This document shows, one piece after another, positions 13,336-23,003 of a stretch of 64,000 nt of DNA. Location: positions 12,638 through 76,637 of the forward strand of contig CAYJRR010000003.1 of the NCBI GenBank assembly GCA_964372275.1, written 5' to 3'. A program made the translations under genes and the position numbers. The notes beneath the pieces were generated by a model that searched no databases, had not been told where the DNA came from, and saw nothing but the letters and a program-made list of their open reading frames with translations. Origin of the DNA: an uncultured bacterium. GTDB taxonomy: Bacteria; CAYJRR01. Numbering within the stretch: the first letter of the stretch is position 1; every line of letters begins with the position of its first letter.

Positions 13336-13941
13336 ATGTCGGCGCGGACGCCACGCAAACCGGGATTCTGGAACGCGGCCAACGTCATCACCGTCGGCCG
13401 GATCCTGATGATCCCGGCGGTGATGGCGTTCCTGTTCACCGATCGCCCGTGGGCCGGGTGGACGGCGATGGTGATCTTCGTCGTGGCGGCGATCTCCGAC
13501 GTGATCGACGGCTACCTCGCGCGCAAGCAGGGGACCGTTTCGGTCGTGGGGGCCTTCCTCGATCCGCTGGCCGACAAGCTGATGGTGATGGCGGTGATGG
13601 TGATGCTGATCCCCCTGGGTCGCATCCCGGCGTGGCTGGTCGTCCTGCTGCTCGCGCGGGAGCTGGTGATCACCGGACTGCGTGGCATCGCCAGCGCCGA
13701 GGGGATCATCATCGCCGCCAGCGGGGGTGGGAAGTACAAGACCGCCTACCAGATGACCGGCCTGTCGTTCCTGCTGATCCATTACGAATACCTGGAGATC
13801 GACACCCACGTCGTCGGACTGTGGCTGATGTTCATCTCGGCCTGGCTCTCGCTGAAGTCGGGATGGGAGTACTGCTACGAGTTCTGGCGCATGAGCCGCC
13901 TGCGGGAGGGCGCGCCCGCGGCCGACGCCAAAGGCGCTTGA
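13336..13941 (+). CDS. pgsA: CDP-diacylglycerol--glycerol-3-phosphate 3-phosphatidyltransferase
   Basis: CDP-alcohol phosphatidyltransferase motif DVIDGYLAR...GAFLDPLADK and a multi-TM topology. Confidence 0.75.
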   Translation: MSARTPRKPGFWNAANVITVGRILMIPAVMAFLFTDRPWAGWTAMVIFVVAAISDVIDGYLARKQGTVSVVGAFLDPLADKLMVMAVMVMLIPLGRIPAWLVVLLLARELVITGLRGIASAEGIIIAASGGGKYKTAYQMTGLSFLLIHYEYLEIDTHVVGLWLMFISAWLSLKSGWEYCYEFWRMSRLREGAPAADAKGA

Positions 13942-13978
13942 CTTCGACCGGGCCGGTGGGTATTCGTTCAGGCAGCTC

Positions 13979-14054
13979 GCGGGAATAGCTCAGTTGGTAG
14001 AGCGTCACGTTGCCAACGTGAATGTCGCCGGTTCAAGTCCGGTTTCCCGCTCCA
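13979..14054 (+). tRNA. tRNA-Gly (anticodon GCC)
   Basis: GCGGGAATAGCTCAGTTGGTAGAGC... cloverleaf. The anticodon loop is TTGCCAA, the T-arm GGTTCAAGTCC, and the acceptor stem GCGGGAA/TTCCCGC followed by CCA. Confidence 0.8.
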
Positions 14055-14065
14055 GACGGTTCGAT

Positions 14066-14098
14066 GGCCCGGTATCCCGCCGGGCTTTCGTTTTTTCG
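14066..14098 (+). terminator. Intrinsic terminator after tRNA-Gly, possibly bidirectional for the convergent peptidase gene
   Basis: GCCCGG-tatcccg-CCGGGC hairpin followed by TTTCGTTTTTTCG. Confidence 0.45.
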
Positions 14099-14142
14099 TA
14101 CCGATCGGTTTCGCCGCGTCGCGGCGCGCGACGCGCGCGGCG

Positions 14143-15141
14143 TTACGGCCTTTCCGCCAACGCCAGCGTCGCCTGGTAGACGCCGGCGGCGACCTTCGAC
14201 ATCCGCGCATAGTCGAGCGACTCCGGGACGTCGCGGTCGGTGTGGTAGCGGTCGTTCCGGTAGAACGAGGTGTCGGTGATCATCCCGGCGGTCCAGCCGT
14301 GGGCCCAGTAGTTCAGGTGATCGGAGAAGTCGACGCCGGGGATCCTGGCCAGGCCGTTCATCGAGCGGACGGGAAGATTGGAGGCGCCGGCGAAGGCCGC
14401 CTTCACCCGGCGCACGAACGATCCCTGTCCCACCTTCCCGATCACGGCGATGAAGTTGCCGCGGGAAGGGTAGAGCGGGCGCAGCAACGCCGTCGGGAAG
14501 CGCTGGCTTTTCGGTTCGTCGGTAAAGAAACCGACCATCTCGATCGAGAGCATCGCCCGCACCTCGACCCCTTCGCGCGCGAGCGATTCGGCGTGGACGG
14601 CGCTCCCCATCCGGTCGGTGCGGAAGAACGGCGGTTCCTCCAGCGAGTAGGCCACCAAGTCGACGCGGGTGGAGAGCTCGCGCGTCTCCCCCAACAGCCG
14701 CGCCACCTCCAGCAGCACCGCCACGCCGCTGGCGTTGTCGTCGGCGCCGGGCTGTGGACCGGCGGTGTCGTAGTGGGCGCCCAGGACGATCCGCGGTCCC
14801 GCCTCGGGGCCGAAGGAGGCGATCACGTTCCGGTACTCCGCGCCGCGCGCCTCGTGAGCGGCGCGGAACGGCTGTTCGGAGACCCGGCCGCCGCCCTCGG
14901 CGAACCGTTCCGCGAGGTACGCGGCCGCGGCGTCGAGGTTGGCGGCGTGCTGGTAATCGCGCGGGTGAAAACGCTCGGCGAGGGCGCGGACGTGCGCTTC
15001 GAGGCGCGCCGGGTCGACCTCGCGGCCGATGCCGGTGGGAGGACGCGGACGCACCCACGGCTGGGTGACGAAGCAGCACGCGGAGAGCGGAACGACGGCG
15101 GCGAGCGCGAGGAGGAGCGGCCTGCGCGACGGTCGGCTCAT
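14143..15141 (-). CDS. M28-family zinc aminopeptidase, lipoprotein
   Basis: Lipobox PLSAC. The M28 metal-ligand region is GAHYDTAGPQPGADDNASGVAVLLEVAR. Confidence 0.65.
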   Translation of the reverse strand: MSRPSRRPLLLALAAVVPLSACCFVTQPWVRPRPPTGIGREVDPARLEAHVRALAERFHPRDYQHAANLDAAAAYLAERFAEGGGRVSEQPFRAAHEARGAEYRNVIASFGPEAGPRIVLGAHYDTAGPQPGADDNASGVAVLLEVARLLGETRELSTRVDLVAYSLEEPPFFRTDRMGSAVHAESLAREGVEVRAMLSIEMVGFFTDEPKSQRFPTALLRPLYPSRGNFIAVIGKVGQGSFVRRVKAAFAGASNLPVRSMNGLARIPGVDFSDHLNYWAHGWTAGMITDTSFYRNDRYHTDRDVPESLDYARMSKVAAGVYQATLALAERP

Positions 15142-15169
15142 GGGGAAGGGGGGCCGATGCGGCTCGGCG

Positions 15170-16465
15170 CTACAGCCGCACGAAGTAGGAGTCGCACGCC
15201 CGGTCGATCAGCTCCTTCGCCAGCTTCGGGGGGACGGCGTAGTACTTGGCGATCGACTCGATCTGGCCGAGGACGTCGCGGGGGTGGACGGAGCGGGGTT
15301 CGAACTTCTTCTCCACGTACTGCCGGTTCCAGATGTACTTCACCGCCTCTTCGGAGAACTCGATCCCCTTGGCGGCGCACATCGCCTCGAAGATCTTCAC
15401 CATCTCCTCGTAGGTCGGACTGTCGAAGCCGATCTTGAACTTGATGCGGCGGAGGAACGCCTCGTCGACCAGGTCCTTCGGCTCCAGGTTGGTGGAGAAG
15501 ATGATCAGCTCGTTGAACGGGACGTTGATCTTCTGCCCGGTGTGGAGGGTCAGGAAGTCGACGCGGGACTCCAGCGGCACGATCCAGCGGTTCAGGAGCT
15601 CCTGCGGGCGGCAGGCCTGCCGGCCGAAGTCGTCGATCAGGAAGATCCCGCAGTTGGCCTTCATCTGGAACGGCGCTTCGTAGAACTTCGAATACTCGTG
15701 GTAGATGAGATCGAGGTTCTCGAGCGTCAGCTCGCCGCCGACCATCACGAACGGCCGTTGCGTCTTGACCCAGCGCAGGTCGATCGAGCCGGCGCGCACC
15801 TTGGCCGCCACGTCGTTGGGGTCGATCTTGGCGTCGACCCGCTTGTGCACGATCTCGTCGTAGACCTTGATGATGCTCCCGGCGAACTCCACGGCGTGCG
15901 GCGTGTAGACCTCGCCGCCCAGGCAGCGCGCCAGGCGCTCGGCGACCGAGGTCTTCCCGTTGCCGGGTTTTCCGAACAGGAACATCGAATGCCCGGAGTT
16001 GGCGGCCGGGCCCATCAGCGAGAAGACGCGCGGATTGATGATGAGGTCCTTCATCGCCTCCTTCATCTGCTCGCGGGTGACGGTCACCTCCCGGATCCCC
16101 TGCAAGGCGACGGCCCGTCGATAGCGATCGAAGGGGATCGGCGCCGGGCCGATGTAGGTGTTGCGGCTCATCGCCTCGGTCACCTTGTTGCGGCCGCGCT
16201 CGGTGAGCGAGAACTCCATCGTCGACTTGCCGAAATCCTGGCCGCCGCGCGCCTCGACGAACTTCTCCTCCTTGAGGCGGTCGATGATCGCCTCGGTCAC
16301 GTCGGCGAACGGGAGGGCGATGACGTCGGCGATGTCGATCCCGCGTGCGTAGCCGTTGCGGTGGATGATCTTGAGGGCGAGGTCGACCAGCACGCTCTCC
16401 TCGAGGCCGGTCTCGGCCAGGCTTTTGGGAGCGCGAACCAGCTCGGCGAGGGTGGGTTCCGGCAC
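15170..16465 (-). CDS. AAA+ family ATPase of unknown function, with an N-terminal winged-helix-like domain
   Basis: Walker A FLFGKPGNGKTSV and Walker B-like FLIDDFGRQ. 431 aa. I could not place the family more precisely. Confidence 0.6.
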   Translation of the reverse strand: MPEPTLAELVRAPKSLAETGLEESVLVDLALKIIHRNGYARGIDIADVIALPFADVTEAIIDRLKEEKFVEARGGQDFGKSTMEFSLTERGRNKVTEAMSRNTYIGPAPIPFDRYRRAVALQGIREVTVTREQMKEAMKDLIINPRVFSLMGPAANSGHSMFLFGKPGNGKTSVAERLARCLGGEVYTPHAVEFAGSIIKVYDEIVHKRVDAKIDPNDVAAKVRAGSIDLRWVKTQRPFVMVGGELTLENLDLIYHEYSKFYEAPFQMKANCGIFLIDDFGRQACRPQELLNRWIVPLESRVDFLTLHTGQKINVPFNELIIFSTNLEPKDLVDEAFLRRIKFKIGFDSPTYEEMVKIFEAMCAAKGIEFSEEAVKYIWNRQYVEKKFEPRSVHPRDVLGQIESIAKYYAVPPKLAKELIDRACDSYFVRL

Positions 16466-16468
16466 GAG

Positions 16469-16720
16469 CTATTCGTAGCGGAGCCACTCGCAGAGCGAGT
16501 GGTCGTGGTAGTCGCCGAGGAAGACGTGGTCGTTGTGCCGATGCCGGACCGACCGCTGGCAGTAGCCGTACTCCAGGTGCGTGGCGTCGGCCCCGACGGT
16601 CGCGGCGCAGCCGGCCGCCAGCCCCGACGCAAGGAGCAGGAGGGCGAGCGCGGCCGCGCGTGGGCGCGCGCGTCGACGAGTGGGACGGCGGTCGCGCGTG
16701 CGGGGAGAGCGCATGGTCAT
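16469..16720 (-). CDS. Small Cys/His-rich lipoprotein (about 83 aa), hypothetical
   Basis: MTMRSPRTRDRR...LLLLASGLAAGC lipobox, then a C-terminal 45 aa containing 3 Cys and 8 His. Its start overlaps the upstream lipoprotein stop as ATGA. Its stop lies 3 nt before the ATPase start. Confidence 0.45.
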   Translation of the reverse strand: MTMRSPRTRDRRPTRRRARPRAAALALLLLASGLAAGCAATVGADATHLEYGYCQRSVRHRHNDHVFLGDYHDHSLCEWLRYE

Positions 16721-17232
16721 CCTCTCGCGCTGCGCTTCCGTTGCAGCGCCTGTTGGATCCGTTCGATCACCTCGATCTCCTTGGCCGTGGAGGAGGGGAT
16801 GTCGATCCATTCGTAGATCCGGCCGTTGAACTCGAGGTTCGCCGAGATGACGTCCTTCAACACCTTCTCGCTGGTCGTCACCCGGATCGTCGTCCGGTTT
16901 CCGGAGGAGGTGAGGCGCACCTGCACCTTGTACTTCACCTTCACCGGGATTCTTGTGCCGCCGTAGTTGGCAAAGACGTAGTCGGACTGGCCGAGGATCC
17001 ATTCGGTGATGATCAACCCCTTGGAGCGCTCGGACGCCTCGATCTGCTGGAACTTCTGCTCCATCGCCTGCACCGACGCGTCCCAGGCGACGTTGAACGG
17101 CGCGTCGAAGGTCCCGAAGACCGGACGCTCCTCGTAGAGGGGGAGATCGTCCTCCGGATAGAGCTCGGGGGCGCATCCGGCGAGGAGCTGCGCGACGAAC
17201 AGGACCGCCAAGGCGGCGAACCGTCGGAGCAT
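16717..17232 (-). CDS. Lipoprotein, hypothetical
   Basis: Signal peptide and lipobox LLAGC. Lys-rich globular body with coding-like composition. Confidence 0.55.
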   Translation of the reverse strand: MLRRFAALAVLFVAQLLAGCAPELYPEDDLPLYEERPVFGTFDAPFNVAWDASVQAMEQKFQQIEASERSKGLIITEWILGQSDYVFANYGGTRIPVKVKYKVQVRLTSSGNRTTIRVTTSEKVLKDVISANLEFNGRIYEWIDIPSSTAKEIEVIERIQQALQRKRSARG

Positions 17233-17288
17233 GTGAGCATTCTACGCCCCCCTTTCCAACCGCGGCAACCGGAGCACCGCGAACCGAA

Positions 17289-17335
17289 CCGATCCGCTAC
17301 CGATACGGATCCGATCGGGAGTCGGATGCCCCGCT
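17289..17335 (+). repeat. Hexamer-periodic CCGA(A/T)(A/C) array, site A
   Basis: CGAACC GAACCG ATCCGC TACCGA TACGGA TCCGAT CGG. A related array sits at 19899..19975. Confidence 0.3.
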
Positions 17336-17362
17336 TGCCGCGGCGTTCGTCGGCGGGGTACG

Positions 17363-18340
17363 GTGCCGGTCGTGGCGCGGGACCCGCTCGAATGGATCCG
17401 CCGCATGGACGCCGGGGACCCGGTGGGGGTGGCCCGGCTGATCACGCAGGTGGAGCGCCGCGGATCGAACCTGGCGTCGGTGATGTCCGAGATCCACCGG
17501 CGGACGCGCGGAGTCCCCTGCATCGGGATCACCGGTCCCCCGGGCGCCGGAAAGAGCACGATCGTCGACCATCTGATCGCCTCCTTCCGGGCCGACGGCA
17601 AGCGGGTCGGCGTGATCGCGGTCGACCCGTCCAGCCCCTTCTCCGGCGGCGCGGTGCTGGGGGACCGCATCCGCATGGTCCGACATTCGCTCGACGGTGG
17701 GGTCTTCATCCGCAGCCTCGGCACGCGCGGGCGGCACGGCGGGTTGTCGCGCGCCACGCGCGACATCCGGCTGGTGCTCGATGCCGAGGGGCGCGACGTG
17801 GTGCTGGTCGAGACGGTCGGCGTCGGTCAGACCGAGCTCGACGTGATGGAGGTGGCCGACACCACCGTCGTCGTCCTGGTTCCGGAGGCGGGGGACGCGG
17901 TGCAGACGCTCAAGGCGGGGCTGCTGGAGATCGCCGACCTGTTCGTCGTGAACAAGGCCGACCGCGAAGGGGCCGACCGGATGGTCGGCGACCTGCAGAA
18001 CCTCGTGGCGCTGCGGGGACCGCGGGACGGTTGGGAGACGCCGGTGCTGTCGACCTCGGCGGTGCGCGGGGAAGGGGTGCGCGAGCTGTACGAGACGCTT
18101 CTCCGACACGGCGCCCACCGCGCCGCCCGCTCCGGCGGGCGGGGGGCGGGCGGGCGGGCCGCGCGGGTGTTGCGCGAGATCCTCGCCGAGCGGGTCGACG
18201 TCAACCTGGAGCGGCTGCTGGCCGACGACCCGGCGGCGCGCGCCGTCGTGGAGGAGGTCGCCGCCGGCCGGGTCGACGCCTACACCGCCTCCGACCGCCT
18301 GGCGTCGCTCCTCGGATCGCGCGCGCTCGGGACGTCGTGA
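17363..18340 (+). CDS. meaB: Methylmalonyl-CoA mutase-associated GTPase (ArgK/MeaB)
   Basis: P-loop GITGPPGAGKST and the VNKAD G4 motif. Typical MeaB length. GTG start. Confidence 0.75.
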   Translation: MPVVARDPLEWIRRMDAGDPVGVARLITQVERRGSNLASVMSEIHRRTRGVPCIGITGPPGAGKSTIVDHLIASFRADGKRVGVIAVDPSSPFSGGAVLGDRIRMVRHSLDGGVFIRSLGTRGRHGGLSRATRDIRLVLDAEGRDVVLVETVGVGQTELDVMEVADTTVVVLVPEAGDAVQTLKAGLLEIADLFVVNKADREGADRMVGDLQNLVALRGPRDGWETPVLSTSAVRGEGVRELYETLLRHGAHRAARSGGRGAGGRAARVLREILAERVDVNLERLLADDPAARAVVEEVAAGRVDAYTASDRLASLLGSRALGTS

Positions 18341-19898: not shown

Positions 19899-19975
19899 CC
19901 GGATCGGATCGGTTCGGATTCGGATACCGATACCGATCGGATCCGAACACCGTCGGATACGGCTACGGCGATCCG
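19899..19975 (+). repeat. Hexamer-periodic GGATCG/TTCGGA/TACCGA array, site B
   Basis: GGATCG GATCGG TTCGGA TTCGGA TACCGA TACCGA TCGGAT CCGAAC ... in the gap between two minus-strand genes. Confidence 0.3.
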
Positions 19976-20856
19976 TTCCAGGGCAGGCGGCCGCCGAGGG
20001 TCGACCCCGCGGCGCCGAGTCGATACAAGCCACGCCGCGCGCGAAGGACACGCGCGGCGAAGGCCTTGGCCGGTCCCCGGCGGAATCGCCGCTCGCGAAG
20101 GTAGACCGCGAGCAGCCGCAGCCACGACCGCCGGTTCACCTCGGCCCAGGTCGTGAGCAGCAGCATCCGGAGGTCGAGCGCCTGCACGTGGCGACGAAGC
20201 GCCTCCGGCAACGGACGCAGGTCCTTGGCCCGATCGAGGTCGATCAGCCAGAGACGCCGCCGTCCGGCGGGTCCGGCGATCACCACGTTGCTGGCGGTGA
20301 AGTCGCCGTGGAAGAAGCCGCCGGCGTGGAGTTGGGCGGCGAGGATCGCCACCTCCCGTAGAAGCGGTCCCGCCGCCGATCCGGCCGCGCGCAGGCGCTT
20401 GAGCTCGTCGGTGAGCAGCGTTCCGTCGTCGAGAGGGCGGGCGAGAAGGAGCGTCTCCCGGTGAAGCAGGCCCGCGCGGCGGCGGAGGAGCAGGAGCGGC
20501 TCCGGGGTGGCGACCCCGGCGGCGGAAAGCAGGCGCCCCATCCTCCAGGAGGTCTCGCCCCGTGTCGGGAAGAGCAGGTCGAACGCCAGCGCGAGACGAT
20601 TCTTCGGGAGGTAGTACTTGGCGTGGACCGGACGCCCCAGCGCCTCCGCCGGCAGGCGCATCGCCGCGCGATGGGGCCGCCATCGATCGAGGGCCCCGCC
20701 GTCCGGCAGCGCCTGCGCGAGCGCGTCGCGGCCGCCATCGGGTCGAAGCCGAGGGAACCAGGCGACGGCCGCCCGCACGAACGGATCGTCGACCCCCGCC
20801 GCGATCACCGCCGAGACGTCACCGATCCGGGCGAACCGTTCTTCGAGGCTGGTCAA
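19963..20856 (-). CDS. Lipopolysaccharide (Kdo/WaaP-type) kinase-family protein
   Basis: FFHGDFTASNVVI ... LIDLDRAK resembles the Kdo-kinase/InaA catalytic loop. Confidence 0.55.
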   Translation of the reverse strand: MTSLEERFARIGDVSAVIAAGVDDPFVRAAVAWFPRLRPDGGRDALAQALPDGGALDRWRPHRAAMRLPAEALGRPVHAKYYLPKNRLALAFDLLFPTRGETSWRMGRLLSAAGVATPEPLLLLRRRAGLLHRETLLLARPLDDGTLLTDELKRLRAAGSAAGPLLREVAILAAQLHAGGFFHGDFTASNVVIAGPAGRRRLWLIDLDRAKDLRPLPEALRRHVQALDLRMLLLTTWAEVNRRSWLRLLAVYLRERRFRRGPAKAFAARVLRARRGLYRLGAAGSTLGGRLPWNGSP

Positions 20857-20933: not shown

Positions 20934-23003
20934 TCACTCCGGCGGAGCCAGGTCCCTCGGCATCAGCAACCAGAACCGGCCGGTGGGGCTGCGTGATTCG
21001 ATGAAGTAGTTCGCCTCGGCGAAGTGGAGGAACGGCCTCCAGTGCAGCAGCTCCGGGGATCGTTGGAGCATCCTCGAATCGAGGACGAGCACCCGGTCGG
21101 ACGCGTGTTTCTTGACGGTCTCCACGAGCCGGTCCCGATCGTGAACGGTCAGGATCTCGGTGAGGCTGGGATGGAAGGCCGGCGGTGTGCCGGTCTTCAG
21201 GTAGAGGGTCGACGCGTTCAGCGACAGGAACAACGGTCGCCCGCGGGCGGGAAGGGATGCGAGGAAGGCCTGGTCGGGGTCGGCTTCCCCCTCGCCGCGC
21301 GCGTCTGCCCACAGGCGCCGCCATCGCTCCGCGAGGTGGAAACGGAGGTCGTATCCGGCGGCCAGTCCGGTCGCAAGCCACGACAGCAGGACCAGGGCCA
21401 CTCCGGAGGCGCACGCTCGGGACCGGGTCGTCGCCAGGAACCTCCGGACGAAGATCGTTCCGAGAAAGATCGCCGGCCAGGACACACCCACGAAGACCCG
21501 CCAATGGCTCCGCCCCTGGTAGTACACGAACAGTCCCGTTCCGACGACGGTGAGCACCAGGACGAGCGCGTGTCGTTCGGTCGCGGCGCCGTCGCGGCGA
21601 ACGAGCGGACGGATCGAATAGGCAAGGCCGAAGACGTAGACGATGGCGGCAAGCTGCCAGCTCTCGCGAATCGACATCGGCAACATGCCGAATCCGCTCC
21701 CGTAGAAGGTCTTCTGGTAGCTCCAGTGGGCGGCCCAGTCGGGAAAGGCGCCGACCCCGACGCGAAATGCCAGCGAGAACGCCGCGACGGCGGCGGCCAA
21801 GACGAGCAGTCCGGAGCCGACGCGGCCTGCGGCGGCGGCGATCGCCGAACGCTGGAACGGACGCCGCGCAAGCTCGCGATACGCGAGAAAGGCGAGCCAC
21901 GCGACGAAGGCCACGATTCCGGATTCGAGATTCCAGAGCACCCCCACCGAGAGGAACGCCGTGGCGATCCACCGGTAGCGCGCGGGCCGGGGGCGGGTCG
22001 CCATGGCGGCCGCCAGCCCGATCGCCGACGCGGGGAAGAGGACCCGAATCGGGAGCAGTTGGAAATAGGGGTCCAGGAGAAACCGGTTCCCGAGGAGCGC
22101 GACCCCCTTCGCATGGGACGCGAGAAAGGAGAACGAGACCCCCGCCGCCCAGCCGAGCGTCGCGAACCACAGCTCGCCGGTCGCGCGGCGCAACGCGATC
22201 CAGAGCAGGACCAGGGCCACCACGGTCAGAGCCGTGAACGTCAACGAGTATCGGACGACGTCGAGTCCGATGAGCTTGAACAGCGGCGCGAGGAGCACGC
22301 CATAGAGGCCGTACTGGGCGCCGGAGTCGAGGAGCGGCGGATGCCCGCGAACGGAGGACAGGACCGAGTGGAACGCGGACTCGAAGTGTCCATCGGACGT
22401 ATGCACGTACGGATCCGACGTCGAAAAGACTCCCACGCCGATCAACGGCGCGCAGACCGCCGCGACGATCGCCCACGCGACCAGGAGCTCGAGTCGAGGC
22501 GAAACCCGACCCGCCCATCGGGCCGACACCAGCCCGGCGAGACACGCGGGAACGACGAAAAACGGGTGGGCCGGGAGGGCGTGCAAGCTCCAGTACGGGA
22601 AGGGGTCGCCCGTATGGGTCCAGAGCGCGACCCCGCCGCCGAGGAGCGCCAGCGACCAACACCAGGCCCTCGGCCCATGCGACGTCCACCGATCCAGTCG
22701 CCGGTCGAGCTTCCATCCGAACCAGACCAGGAAGAAGAGAGGAAACCATAGAAGGGCGGCCTGGAAGACGGCCGATTCCGCCGGCTCCGGACGGACCCAG
22801 AATCGAACGAGCACATGGGACGAGGCGTCGGCGCGGGCCGGAGGGGTCCGATGGGCGACCAGGAACGCAAGGGGAACGAACAGCGCGATCGCGACGATCG
22901 CCGCCAGCGCGCACGAGACGAATCGGTGCCGCGACACGTGACGCTCGGAGTCGACGTCCGCGGCGTCGCCGATCCGGGCGGCCCCTTCTTCGAAGCTGGT
23001 CAA
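20934..23003 (-). CDS. Large polytopic membrane protein (689 aa, 12 or more TM), possibly an ArnT/PMT-like glycosyl- or aminoarabinosyl-transferase
   Basis: Many hydrophobic helices with Trp/Arg-rich loops. The N-terminal 15 aa are encoded inside repeat copy 2. I did not find a catalytic motif. Confidence 0.6.
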   Translation of the reverse strand: MTSFEEGAARIGDAADVDSERHVSRHRFVSCALAAIVAIALFVPLAFLVAHRTPPARADASSHVLVRFWVRPEPAESAVFQAALLWFPLFFLVWFGWKLDRRLDRWTSHGPRAWCWSLALLGGGVALWTHTGDPFPYWSLHALPAHPFFVVPACLAGLVSARWAGRVSPRLELLVAWAIVAAVCAPLIGVGVFSTSDPYVHTSDGHFESAFHSVLSSVRGHPPLLDSGAQYGLYGVLLAPLFKLIGLDVVRYSLTFTALTVVALVLLWIALRRATGELWFATLGWAAGVSFSFLASHAKGVALLGNRFLLDPYFQLLPIRVLFPASAIGLAAAMATRPRPARYRWIATAFLSVGVLWNLESGIVAFVAWLAFLAYRELARRPFQRSAIAAAAGRVGSGLLVLAAAVAAFSLAFRVGVGAFPDWAAHWSYQKTFYGSGFGMLPMSIRESWQLAAIVYVFGLAYSIRPLVRRDGAATERHALVLVLTVVGTGLFVYYQGRSHWRVFVGVSWPAIFLGTIFVRRFLATTRSRACASGVALVLLSWLATGLAAGYDLRFHLAERWRRLWADARGEGEADPDQAFLASLPARGRPLFLSLNASTLYLKTGTPPAFHPSLTEILTVHDRDRLVETVKKHASDRVLVLDSRMLQRSPELLHWRPFLHFAEANYFIESRSPTGRFWLLMPRDLAPPE

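Follow-up and report, generated by a model that had tools for sequence, protein, structure and literature searches.

The four minus-strand genes at positions 14,143–17,232 of the window (the whole 64,000-nucleotide stretch of DNA analysed, from an uncultured bacterium) comprise a conserved unit of three genes, not four. The unit encodes a 171-residue lipoprotein, a small His- and Cys-rich lipoprotein (mini-lipoprotein) and an AAA+ ATPase; the fourth gene, for an M28 peptidase-family lipoprotein, is a chance neighbour within a variable segment beside a tRNA-Gly gene. By sequence homology and gene position, the ATPase belongs to a family whose members in Alpha-, Beta- and Gammaproteobacteria are integral accessory genes of Tad/Flp (type IVc) pilus loci. 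We tentatively propose that the ATPase and the two lipoproteins form a clade-specific accessory operon tied to an envelope machine of the type-IV-filament class, a reading in which our confidence falls a little short of even. The features of the locus are as follows.

16717–17232, minus strand: lipoprotein gene, 171 aa (open reading frame)
16469–16720, minus strand: mini-lipoprotein gene, 83 aa, or 81 aa from the second ATG (open reading frame)
15170–16465, minus strand: AAA+ ATPase gene, 431 aa, GTG start (open reading frame)
14143–15141, minus strand: M28 peptidase-family lipoprotein gene, 332 aa (open reading frame, Pfam)
17239–17268, minus strand: promoter-like site, TTGCCG / 18 nt / TAGAAT (sigma-70-like)
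13979–14054, plus strand: tRNA-Gly(GCC), bounding on its distal side the variable segment with the M28 gene (ARAGORN, Rfam)

Conserved homologues exist for each of the four open reading frames, all of which are real genes, and the junctions described in a previous sequence-only reading are borne out by the reading frames and the junction sequence. The lipoprotein and mini-lipoprotein genes share an ATGA overlap (...GGATGACC...), the mini-lipoprotein and ATPase genes are 3 nt apart (TAG-CTC-GTG), and a 28-nt spacer leads from the ATPase gene to the M28 gene. The promoter-like site is the only sigma-70-like site within positions 13900–17500, and the 3-nt gap upstream of the ATPase gene leaves no room for a promoter of its own. 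With only 6 nt between the end of its −10 hexamer and the lipoprotein ATG, the site is suggestive of a leaderless transcript; a TAGAAT, TACAAT or TATACT hexamer is located 6–8 nt 5′ of the homologous ATG in six related loci (L002, L084, L085, L087, L088 and L096), and the transcript of the three genes is probably leaderless in this clade. A MeaB-type G3E GTPase gene adjoins on the opposite strand.

The order of lipoprotein (about 170 aa), mini-lipoprotein (60–80 aa, with His and Cys) and ATPase is kept in nine contigs (the window, L002, L084, L085/86, L087, L088, L093, L094 and L096), with spacing that ranges from an 8-nt overlap to a 19-nt gap. ATPase identity in these loci spans 64–87%, with different genes on the flanks. 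The ATPase thus has the His-rich lipoprotein as a conserved neighbour, albeit within one narrow uncultured clade only. Assembly GCA_040960215.1 also carries the three genes. The M28 gene is downstream of the ATPase gene in none of the five relatives that reach past it (L002, L084, L085/86, L087 and L088); in L002 and L084 the same tRNA-Gly is present at the corresponding place, and the genes between it and the ATPase differ. No terminator-like site was found between the ATPase and M28 genes, so read-through is plausible here, and the M28 gene would be a passenger in the variable tRNA-Gly region, transcribed here by read-through only. The original description of a four-gene envelope operon therefore stands for adjacency and plausible co-transcription, but not for conservation.

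Three of the four products are predicted lipoproteins, as had been proposed, each starting with a hydrophobic signal region that leads into a lipobox (consensus L-[AS]-[GA]-C). The lipoboxes (LAGC, residues 17–20 of the 171-residue lipoprotein; AAGC, residues 35–38 of the mini-lipoprotein; LSAC, residues 19–22 of the M28 protein) follow hydrophobic stretches with a maximum Kyte–Doolittle 19-residue window of 1.8–2.2, and the lipobox Cys is invariant in the alignments of both the 171-residue lipoprotein and the mini-lipoprotein. Neither a signal peptide nor a membrane segment was found in the ATPase, which is therefore predicted to be cytoplasmic, unlike the other three products, which are predicted to be exported. 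Any coupling of the ATPase to the lipoproteins must therefore be indirect.

The 171-residue lipoprotein is predicted to adopt a single helix-grip domain resembling the N-terminal domain of BamC and the DUF3568 lipoproteins (Francisella Flpp3). BamC has two domains and an N-terminal BamD-binding stretch, whereas the window protein has one domain and no Bam genes adjacent, and it is not BamC by profile (NCBIfam NF008674, 15.7 bits versus a cut-off of 371); Pfam Lipoprotein_18 also scored below its cut-off (17.1 bits versus 25). Scans of both lipoproteins against Pfam, NCBIfam and PADLOC gave nothing decisive. Distant homologues of the larger lipoprotein are present in loci that lack the ATPase (L089–L092 and L097–L099). 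Directly after the homologue in L092, a PilO-like protein is encoded (Pfam PilO, E-value of 4e-4, borderline at 20.9 bits versus a cut-off of 22), for which the three PDB sequence matches in total are all PilO entries; for the proteins of L099 (hhalign E-value of 0.014) and L089, comparison with PilO gave no clear likeness. No other pilus genes were found in L089, L092 or L099. As a candidate for a common third component, the membrane protein encoded after the Rhizobium AAA gene was compared with that encoded after the L099 lipoprotein pair, and the two showed no similarity.

The mature part of the mini-lipoprotein comprises about 45 residues with the invariant motif H-x2-YGxC-x-RSVRHxHNDHV-x-LG-x2-HDHSLCEW. 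Residues H46, C52, H58, H60, H63, H70, H72 and C75 are invariant across the 20 clusters of the alignment. The count of three Cys and eight His in the last 45 residues given previously is corrected to six His and two Cys, the third Cys being that of the lipobox. No Pfam or NCBIfam family matched the mini-lipoprotein, and a profile search against 1.84 billion representatives returned seven matches only. Because the His and Cys residues are invariant across the 20 clusters, metal binding is a reasonable guess, and on this pattern of residues it is plausible that the protein binds metal.

The assignment of the fourth product as an M28 peptidase lipoprotein holds, with its lipobox, a Pfam PF04389 match far above the cut-off (83.4 bits versus 21.3, E-value of 2e-23) and all five metal and catalytic motif positions present (AHYD, 122–125; DDNASG, 134–139; LEEPP, 167–171; IEMVG, 200–204; SDHLN, 273–277). 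By sequence, the PDB entries closest to it are glutaminyl cyclases of bacteria (7.5e-12) and leucine aminopeptidases, with 6QQL and 7CJE at the top at about 8e-12. The protein may be an M28 aminopeptidase or a type II glutaminyl cyclase of the bacterial kind.

The ATPase is predicted to comprise an N-terminal winged helix, in agreement with the winged-helix-like domain noted before, and an AAA+ module of the LonB/MoxR-like fold class. Membership of the AAA+ superfamily is evident from Walker A (GKPGNGKT, 165–172, as previously noted), Walker B (FLIDD, 275–279, its D-D invariant), sensor-1 (FSTN, 323–326), the arginine-finger region, a helical lid with sensor-2 and the α/β fold; further motifs are FLRRI (337–341) and HPRD (394–397, sensor-2-type). 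The model has a β-rich insertion at about residues 191–263 and a β-hairpin (302–316) ahead of the strand 320–325. What had been described as a C-terminal extension of roughly 100 residues is an ordinary four-helix AAA+ lid (helices within 352–427) that carries HPRD.

Profile-HMM classification placed the ATPase in no curated family, the matches in Pfam, NCBIfam and PADLOC being marginal and limited to the Walker A region. Classical AAA proteins were defined as those that Pfam matches over the whole domain and that lack a β-hairpin before sensor-1; PF00004 scored 23.1 bits versus a cut-off of 21.2, but at profile positions 1–38 of 131 only. The lack of an obvious match to MoxR/RavA, ZapE or chelatase-type proteins was confirmed. 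No MoxR, AAA_3 or AAA_5 match reached its cut-off (bpMoxR, 20 bits versus 27; AAA_5, 17.8 versus 22; Walker A only), and there is no adjacent VWA gene of the kind that partners MoxR proteins (CbbQ, NorQ). AFG1_ATPase (ZapE/AFG1) is absent from the Pfam and NCBIfam matches at E ≤ 0.1, and the protein falls outside the Mg-chelatase/YifB–ComM group as defined by PF01078 and NCBIfam YifB. Single-sequence and profile searches of the PDB gave matches at the Walker A and SRH-like regions only, and with the profile, spastin, NSF and Vps4 matched at Walker A and a DEAxLRR segment only.

By predicted structure, the nearest solved entry is 8P49, an uncharacterised archaeal hexamer (Pyrococcus furiosus Q8U0N8) with only 12–15% identity to the window ATPase and no match detected at the sequence level, followed by the LonB AAA module, with NtrC and MoxR also among the top matches. 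By analogy with 8P49, the ATPase would be expected to form a hexameric ring. It differs from Lon in having neither a protease domain nor a membrane insertion, and from NtrC-type proteins in having no sigma-54 activator signature.

The window holds one copy of the ATPase, and its family has at least 8,000 clusters at 90% identity; in the GTDB species representatives, at least 593 stretches match it. With Chloroflexota members and with Myxococcota members the window protein shares about 50% identity, as those two groups do with each other. This is a very large, strongly conserved and slowly evolving family with orthologue-like divergence; in the literature searched we found no characterized member or functional study.

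In 76 plasmid or chromid records, tblastn detected homologues with 33–41% identity over 97–100% of the query. In every proteobacterial replicon examined, eight of eight records, the homologue is inside a Tad/Flp pilus locus or borders on one. In Rhizobium and Sinorhizobium the order is CpaE, CpaF, TadB, TadC and then the ATPase homologue; in Burkholderia and Paraburkholderia it is Flp pilins, prepilin peptidase, ATPase homologue, CpaB and secretin; in Photobacterium it is ATPase homologue, CpaB and secretin, then TadZ and CpaF; and in Salipiger the homologue adjoins TadC. In six Chloroflexota loci (L003, L030, L035, L063, L068 and L078), which belong to Chloroflexia and Ardenticatenia, a CpaF-like T2SSE gene is directly downstream of the ATPase gene. 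For the tad operon of Vibrio parahaemolyticus, a ‘Predicted ATPase with chaperone activity’ is listed with TadV on one side and RcpC on the other (PMC7859628); this protein, VP2426, was matched to the family through annotation and position only, not sequence.

The window ATPase is homologous over its full length to this unnamed, Tad-locus-associated winged-helix AAA+ family. It shares with the Tad-embedded proteins (for example, WP_011428170.1 of R. etli CFN42 p42e and WP_258285372.1 of B. pyrrocinia) the winged helix and AAA+ module, a length of 430–476 aa and the motifs GxPGNGKT, IDDFGRQ, NRWIVPLE, FSTN and FLRR. The genes differ in setting: the Tad-embedded genes follow tadC or have the gene for prepilin peptidase on one side and cpaB on the other, whereas that of the window comes after two genes for lipoproteins. 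No homologues of CpaF, TadB/C, CpaB, secretin or prepilin peptidase were detected in the 64-kb window or the contigs with the three-gene unit (tblastn, E < 1e-4), and none of the two lipoproteins or the M28 protein in the Tad loci examined.

Because its homologues are built into Tad/Flp loci or are upstream of a CpaF-like ATPase, we infer that the ATPase serves a machine of the type-IV-filament class. It would act on the cytoplasmic side, in assembly or remodelling of the motor or platform, or possibly as a regulator. The first two genes of the operon would supply exported lipoproteins, the mini-lipoprotein presenting a lipid-anchored peptide of about 45 residues that would hold a metal ion through its His and Cys residues. 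Co-transcribed with the ATPase in this clade, the two envelope lipoproteins would probably serve the same machine on its outer side; their functional link to the ATPase, or to a pilus, is our interpretation. Against it counts that functionally unrelated genes are often co-transcribed, that the window and the contigs with the three-gene unit contain no core gene of a Tad or other type-IV-filament system, that the Tad loci examined lack homologues of the lipoproteins, and that the likeness to PilO is weak.

A somewhat unlikely alternative is that the operon arose by accident, with the ATPase a general cytoplasmic housekeeping remodeller and the lipoprotein pair an independent envelope cassette that shares its promoter. 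Each part does occur without the other: the lipoproteins are absent around the ATPase in 80 of the 80 closest GTDB loci, the ATPase family being present in hundreds of species without them, the larger lipoprotein has the ATPase-free relatives described above, and the lipoprotein pair is also found without the ATPase. The single-copy, orthologue-like divergence of the ATPase family would also suit a housekeeping role. Its neighbours are unrelated in 74 of these 80 loci (Anaerolineae and Myxococcota; GDPD, IlvE, patatin and Fic), so the family may have a broader role. Clustering of the open reading frames around the 80 loci revealed no universal neighbour, the commonest being specific to a lineage, GDPD to Anaerolineae and both IlvE and patatin to Myxococcota. 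DUF6812 was considered as a general partner and set aside, being upstream in three of 83 loci only; no paper mentioning it was found. However, across the nine contigs the junctions remain tight or overlapping, even where ATPase identity falls to 64% and the flanks change, and the 3-nt gap leaves the ATPase gene without promoter space. The recurrence of Tad embedding in three proteobacterial classes and Chloroflexota argues against a purely generic role.

We regard as unlikely a more extended form of the pilus-machine reading, in which the winged-helix AAA+ family would be a widely conserved cytoplasmic component of Tad-like machines and, together with a metal-binding mini-lipoprotein and the BamC-like lipoprotein, would form in this clade a new trans-envelope accessory module, for example in secretin or platform assembly. 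It is rather improbable that the ATPase is an ATP-dependent transcription regulator of adjacent genes (tad in Proteobacteria, the lipoprotein operon here). The homologue does head the cpaB–secretin genes in Burkholderia and Photobacterium, but the would-be recognition helix (LPFxGVVExVLxFLKREK), judged by eye, has no conserved basic or polar DNA-reading residues, neither a GAFTGA-type motif nor a sigma-54 activator Pfam match is present, and 8P49 and LonB, rather than activators, head the structural matches.

The sequence-only reading suggested a metallochaperone or peptidase-maturation system. Such a model, with the M28 enzyme loaded or activated by the AAA+ protein and metal-binding lipoproteins, is largely refuted by gene neighbourhoods, and we consider it very unlikely. 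M28 enzymes require zinc, all four genes follow one another on the same strand without an intervening terminator, the His and Cys residues of the mini-lipoprotein are invariant, and the adjoining MeaB-type gene on the other strand would also fit. However, partnership with the M28 gene is not conserved (present in 0 of 5 extended relatives), the ATPase is predicted to be cytoplasmic but the M28 protein to be exported, the ATPase and lipoprotein families each occur without the other and without M28, and the recurrent partners of the ATPase elsewhere are Tad/Flp genes, not metalloproteins. An anti-phage or toxin–antitoxin pair resembling IetA/IetS, an AAA-ATPase with a subtilisin-like protease (PMC4010927), is scarcely credible: IetA models are the best library matches of the ATPase (PADLOC, 6e-10; NCBIfam IteA, 3.5e-07) and the next gene encodes a peptidase, but these matches are partial, mainly to the Walker A region (IteA, 29.7 bits versus a cut-off of 510), with no full-length match and no adjacent subtilisin-like IetS gene, the neighbouring peptidase being a non-conserved M28 lipoprotein; moreover, no relatives were found on the viral contigs searched, the gene has a stable, chromosomal synteny, and divergence of the family across phyla is orthologue-like.

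The lipoprotein–ATPase operon itself is limited to a narrow uncultured lineage. In many bacteria, Tad/Flp pili drive adhesion, the formation of biofilms and the colonisation of hosts, and most of their components are regarded as known; a strongly conserved AAA+ protein without a curated family is now placed inside Tad loci or beside CpaF-like ATPases. Its role is open to experiment, since homologues are carried by cultured Proteobacteria with complete genome records, including R. etli CFN42 (RHE_RS25680), S. fredii NGR234 and Burkholderia.

The window has a G+C content of approximately 70%. Four of its minus-strand ORFs are arranged head to tail.

17239–17244, minus strand: −10-like hexamer, with counterparts upstream of the lipoprotein gene in related loci L002, L084, L085, L087, L088 and L096
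16717–17232, minus strand: lipoprotein, 171 aa, lipobox LAGC
16469–16720, minus strand: small lipoprotein, 83 aa, lipobox AAGC
15170–16465, minus strand: ATPase, 431 aa, GTG start, Walker A
14143–15141, minus strand: M28 peptidase, 332 aa, lipobox LSAC
Just beyond M28, plus strand: tRNA-Gly(GCC)
14055–15169: variable ATPase-to-tRNA-Gly(GCC) segment, holding M28 in the window (counterparts L002 9306–13927 and L084 9324–15132)

The ORFs and junction sequences confirm the four genes claimed by the sequence-only reading, joined in gene order by an ATGA in which stop and start codons overlap, and then by spacers of 3 nt (CTC within TAG-CTC-GTG) and 28 nt; that observation is largely real. In three of the four products, a lipobox (LAGC, AAGC or LSAC) closes a hydrophobic signal region at the N-terminus. 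The ATPase, with no hydrophobic segment and a 19-residue Kyte–Doolittle maximum of 1.49, is predicted to be soluble and cytoplasmic. A scan of 13900–17500 returned a sole sigma-70-like promoter match, directly upstream of the first (lipoprotein) gene, and no terminator-like site between the ATPase and M28 genes. A −10-like hexamer (TAGAAT, TACAAT or TATACT) lies 6–8 nt ahead of the first ATG(CGC) at seven loci, and this conserved position suggests one promoter and a leaderless mRNA for the first gene. A MeaB/ArgK-type G3E GTPase gene (17363–18340, plus strand) is divergent from the operon, an adjacency preserved in L002, L084 and L088, and not in L085 or L087.

Close relatives of the ATPase (64–87% identity) were found in metagenomes and metagenome-assembled genomes (MAGs) only. 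Readable contigs provided nine independent versions of the locus (the window, L002, L084, L085/86, L087, L088, L093, L094 and L096), all nine having the order lipoprotein of approximately 170 aa, small lipoprotein of 60–80 aa, ATPase, with adjacent genes overlapping by up to 8 nt or separated by up to 19 nt, and with varying flanking genes. Five relatives continue past the ATPase; in none is M28 the next gene, and in all five the gene that follows is on the opposite strand. What is conserved is thus a three-gene unit rather than a four-gene operon, with M28 in a variable segment. The tRNA-Gly is retained in L002 and L084, and beyond it L002 also retains the CDP-alcohol transferase, SLT and NadB genes; the segment between ATPase and tRNA-Gly in these two loci carries other genes than in the window (acidic lipoproteins, a DMP19-family gene and others). 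These acidic lipoproteins are convergent and of low complexity. Among solved structures, the M28 protein is closest in sequence to bacterial type II glutaminyl cyclases (6QQL, 7CJE), followed by leucine aminopeptidases, and it could be a cyclase instead of a peptidase.

The small lipoprotein (20 clusters) belongs to no Pfam or NCBIfam family. Its signal peptide is variable and its mature part near-invariant (H-x2-YGxC-x-RSVRHxHNDHV-x-LG-x2-HDHSLCEW); the last 45 residues contain six His and two Cys, rather than the eight and three first counted. Searched with a profile, 1.84 billion representatives gave just seven matches. Four of these are more distant forms (IPHxxYGGCQIQGRHYHNTHVFIGD..SLTEWLKY) in which the first His, first Cys and RHxHNxH cluster are still present and the second Cys and YHDH motif are lost. 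The family as a whole conserves one Cys and four His, which fits a putative metal site. The N-terminal region in the window (MTMRSPRTRDRRPTRRRARPR..., 16610–16720, minus strand) is unusually long and Arg-rich, and short in homologues; public annotation begins the protein two codons later (81 aa), and the start codon is uncertain.

The ATPase was correctly described as unclassified: curated Pfam, NCBIfam and PADLOC families match it only marginally, around Walker A (PF00004, 23.1 bits; Mg_chelatase, 19.9; bpMoxR, 20; IetA, 6e-10). Its family comprises at least 8000 clusters at E < 1e-5, with at least 593 confirmed matches among GTDB species representatives and no relatives found on viral contigs. 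Along its full length, the window protein shares approximately 50% identity with Chloroflexota and with Myxococcota members, and these two share approximately 50% with each other. Invariant motifs are GxxGxGK, inside a GxPGNGKT consensus (P and N approximately 90% conserved), IDDFGRQ, NRWIxPxE, TN within F(S)TN, FLRRI and (H)PRD. Asp-Glu is the usual Walker B pair of AAA+ proteins; here it is an invariant Asp-Asp in 64 of 64 aligned members (15629–15634, minus strand; residues 278–279), and the chemistry or rate of hydrolysis may be unusual. An AF2 model (pLDDT 92.6) has an N-terminal winged helix, a β-rich insertion between Walker A and B (approximately residues 191–263), a β-hairpin (302–316) ahead of the sensor-1 strand and a helical lid. 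What was taken for a C-terminal extension is the usual four-helix AAA+ lid, which carries a sensor-2-type HPRD motif. The literature searched yielded no functional study of the family.

The ATPase and the His-rich lipoprotein are adjacent in the nine close versions, but neither these lipoproteins nor M28 occur near the ATPase in its 80 closest GTDB loci, and most of its neighbours there are specific to a lineage. In Anaerolineae, a GDPD (glycerophosphodiester phosphodiesterase) gene follows at a median of 16 nt (31 loci; for example, L019 7208–8032), and GT2 and GH3 genes are also present; in Myxococcota, the genes upstream encode a patatin(-like phospholipase) and IlvE, and those downstream Fic, GNAT or DHH. 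Neighbours with a link to lipids may be there by chance. In six Chloroflexota loci (L003, L030, L035, L063, L068 and L078), a CpaF-like T2SSE ATPase gene is directly downstream, with DUF6812 directly upstream in three. The compact DUF6812, winged-helix AAA+, CpaF-like T2SSE set occurs in Chloroflexia and Ardenticatenia:

L003 7699–10748
L030 3669–6650
L068 4204–8742

L068 (Roseiflexus) also has a TPR protein upstream and a convergent ComFC-like gene downstream. A tblastn search of PLSDB identified full-length homologues (33–41% identity) on 76 chromids or megaplasmids, Tad-linked in all eight records examined. In Rhizobium/Sinorhizobium, TadE/G, CpaE-like, L,D-transpeptidase, CpaF, TadB and TadC genes come first, and the homologue follows after 16 nt; in Burkholderia/Paraburkholderia, the order is Flp pilins, prepilin peptidase, homologue, CpaB and secretin, with TadZ and CpaF further on; in Photobacterium, homologue, CpaB, secretin, then TadZ, CpaF and TadB; and in Salipiger the homologue abuts TadC. 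Many family members bear the JGI name "Predicted ATPase with chaperone activity". A published table gives this name to VP2426, between TadV and RcpC in the Vibrio parahaemolyticus tad operon (PMC7859628), a likeness of annotation and position, not sequence.

Elsewhere the lipoproteins occur without the ATPase: the larger one and then the small one before a single-pass membrane protein (L097, L098, L099), or the larger one directly before a 247–344-aa membrane protein (L089, L090, L092) or alone (L091). The L092 membrane protein is weakly PilO-like: it matches Pfam PilO slightly below the cut-off of 22 (20.9 bits, E = 4e-4), and its three PDB sequence matches are all PilO (best E = 0.023). The L089 protein is homologous to it (1e-22), and the L099 protein aligned to the same region only weakly (hhalign E = 0.014). 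The PilO link of the lipoprotein family is borderline. At L089 7001–13190, on a 1.95-Mb MAG contig, a distant lipoprotein homologue and this homologue of the L092 protein open an eight-gene same-strand run; the other six genes have no Pfam family on record, and at least five look multi-pass membrane by eye.

The proposed metallochaperone or peptidase-maturation module is not supported, failing on conservation, topology and the independent distributions of its parts. An IetAS-like assignment was likewise rejected on the marginal IetA match. In the best-supported reading, the ATPase would be an orthologue of an AAA+ accessory protein of Tad-class type IV filament systems; in one uncultured clade it would share a transcript with a pair of envelope lipoproteins, which may also serve that machinery. 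The window's Kdo/WaaP-type kinase and the OEP gene of related locus L085 make a diderm clade probable. The kinase gene (19963–20856) adjoins a 689-aa ORF (20934–23003, minus strand) that has no Pfam match and, judged by its translation, resembles a multi-pass membrane protein. The lipoprotein step is the weakest: no tad genes occur in the 64-kb window or the contigs carrying the three genes, most close ATPase family members do not adjoin pilus genes and the PilO link is borderline. Alternatives are that lipoprotein pair and ATPase form an operon purely by chance, or that the ATPase acts as a regulator. The small His/Cys lipoprotein represents a new family of narrow distribution. The ATPase is a real conserved unknown whose association with Tad pili is clear and testable.
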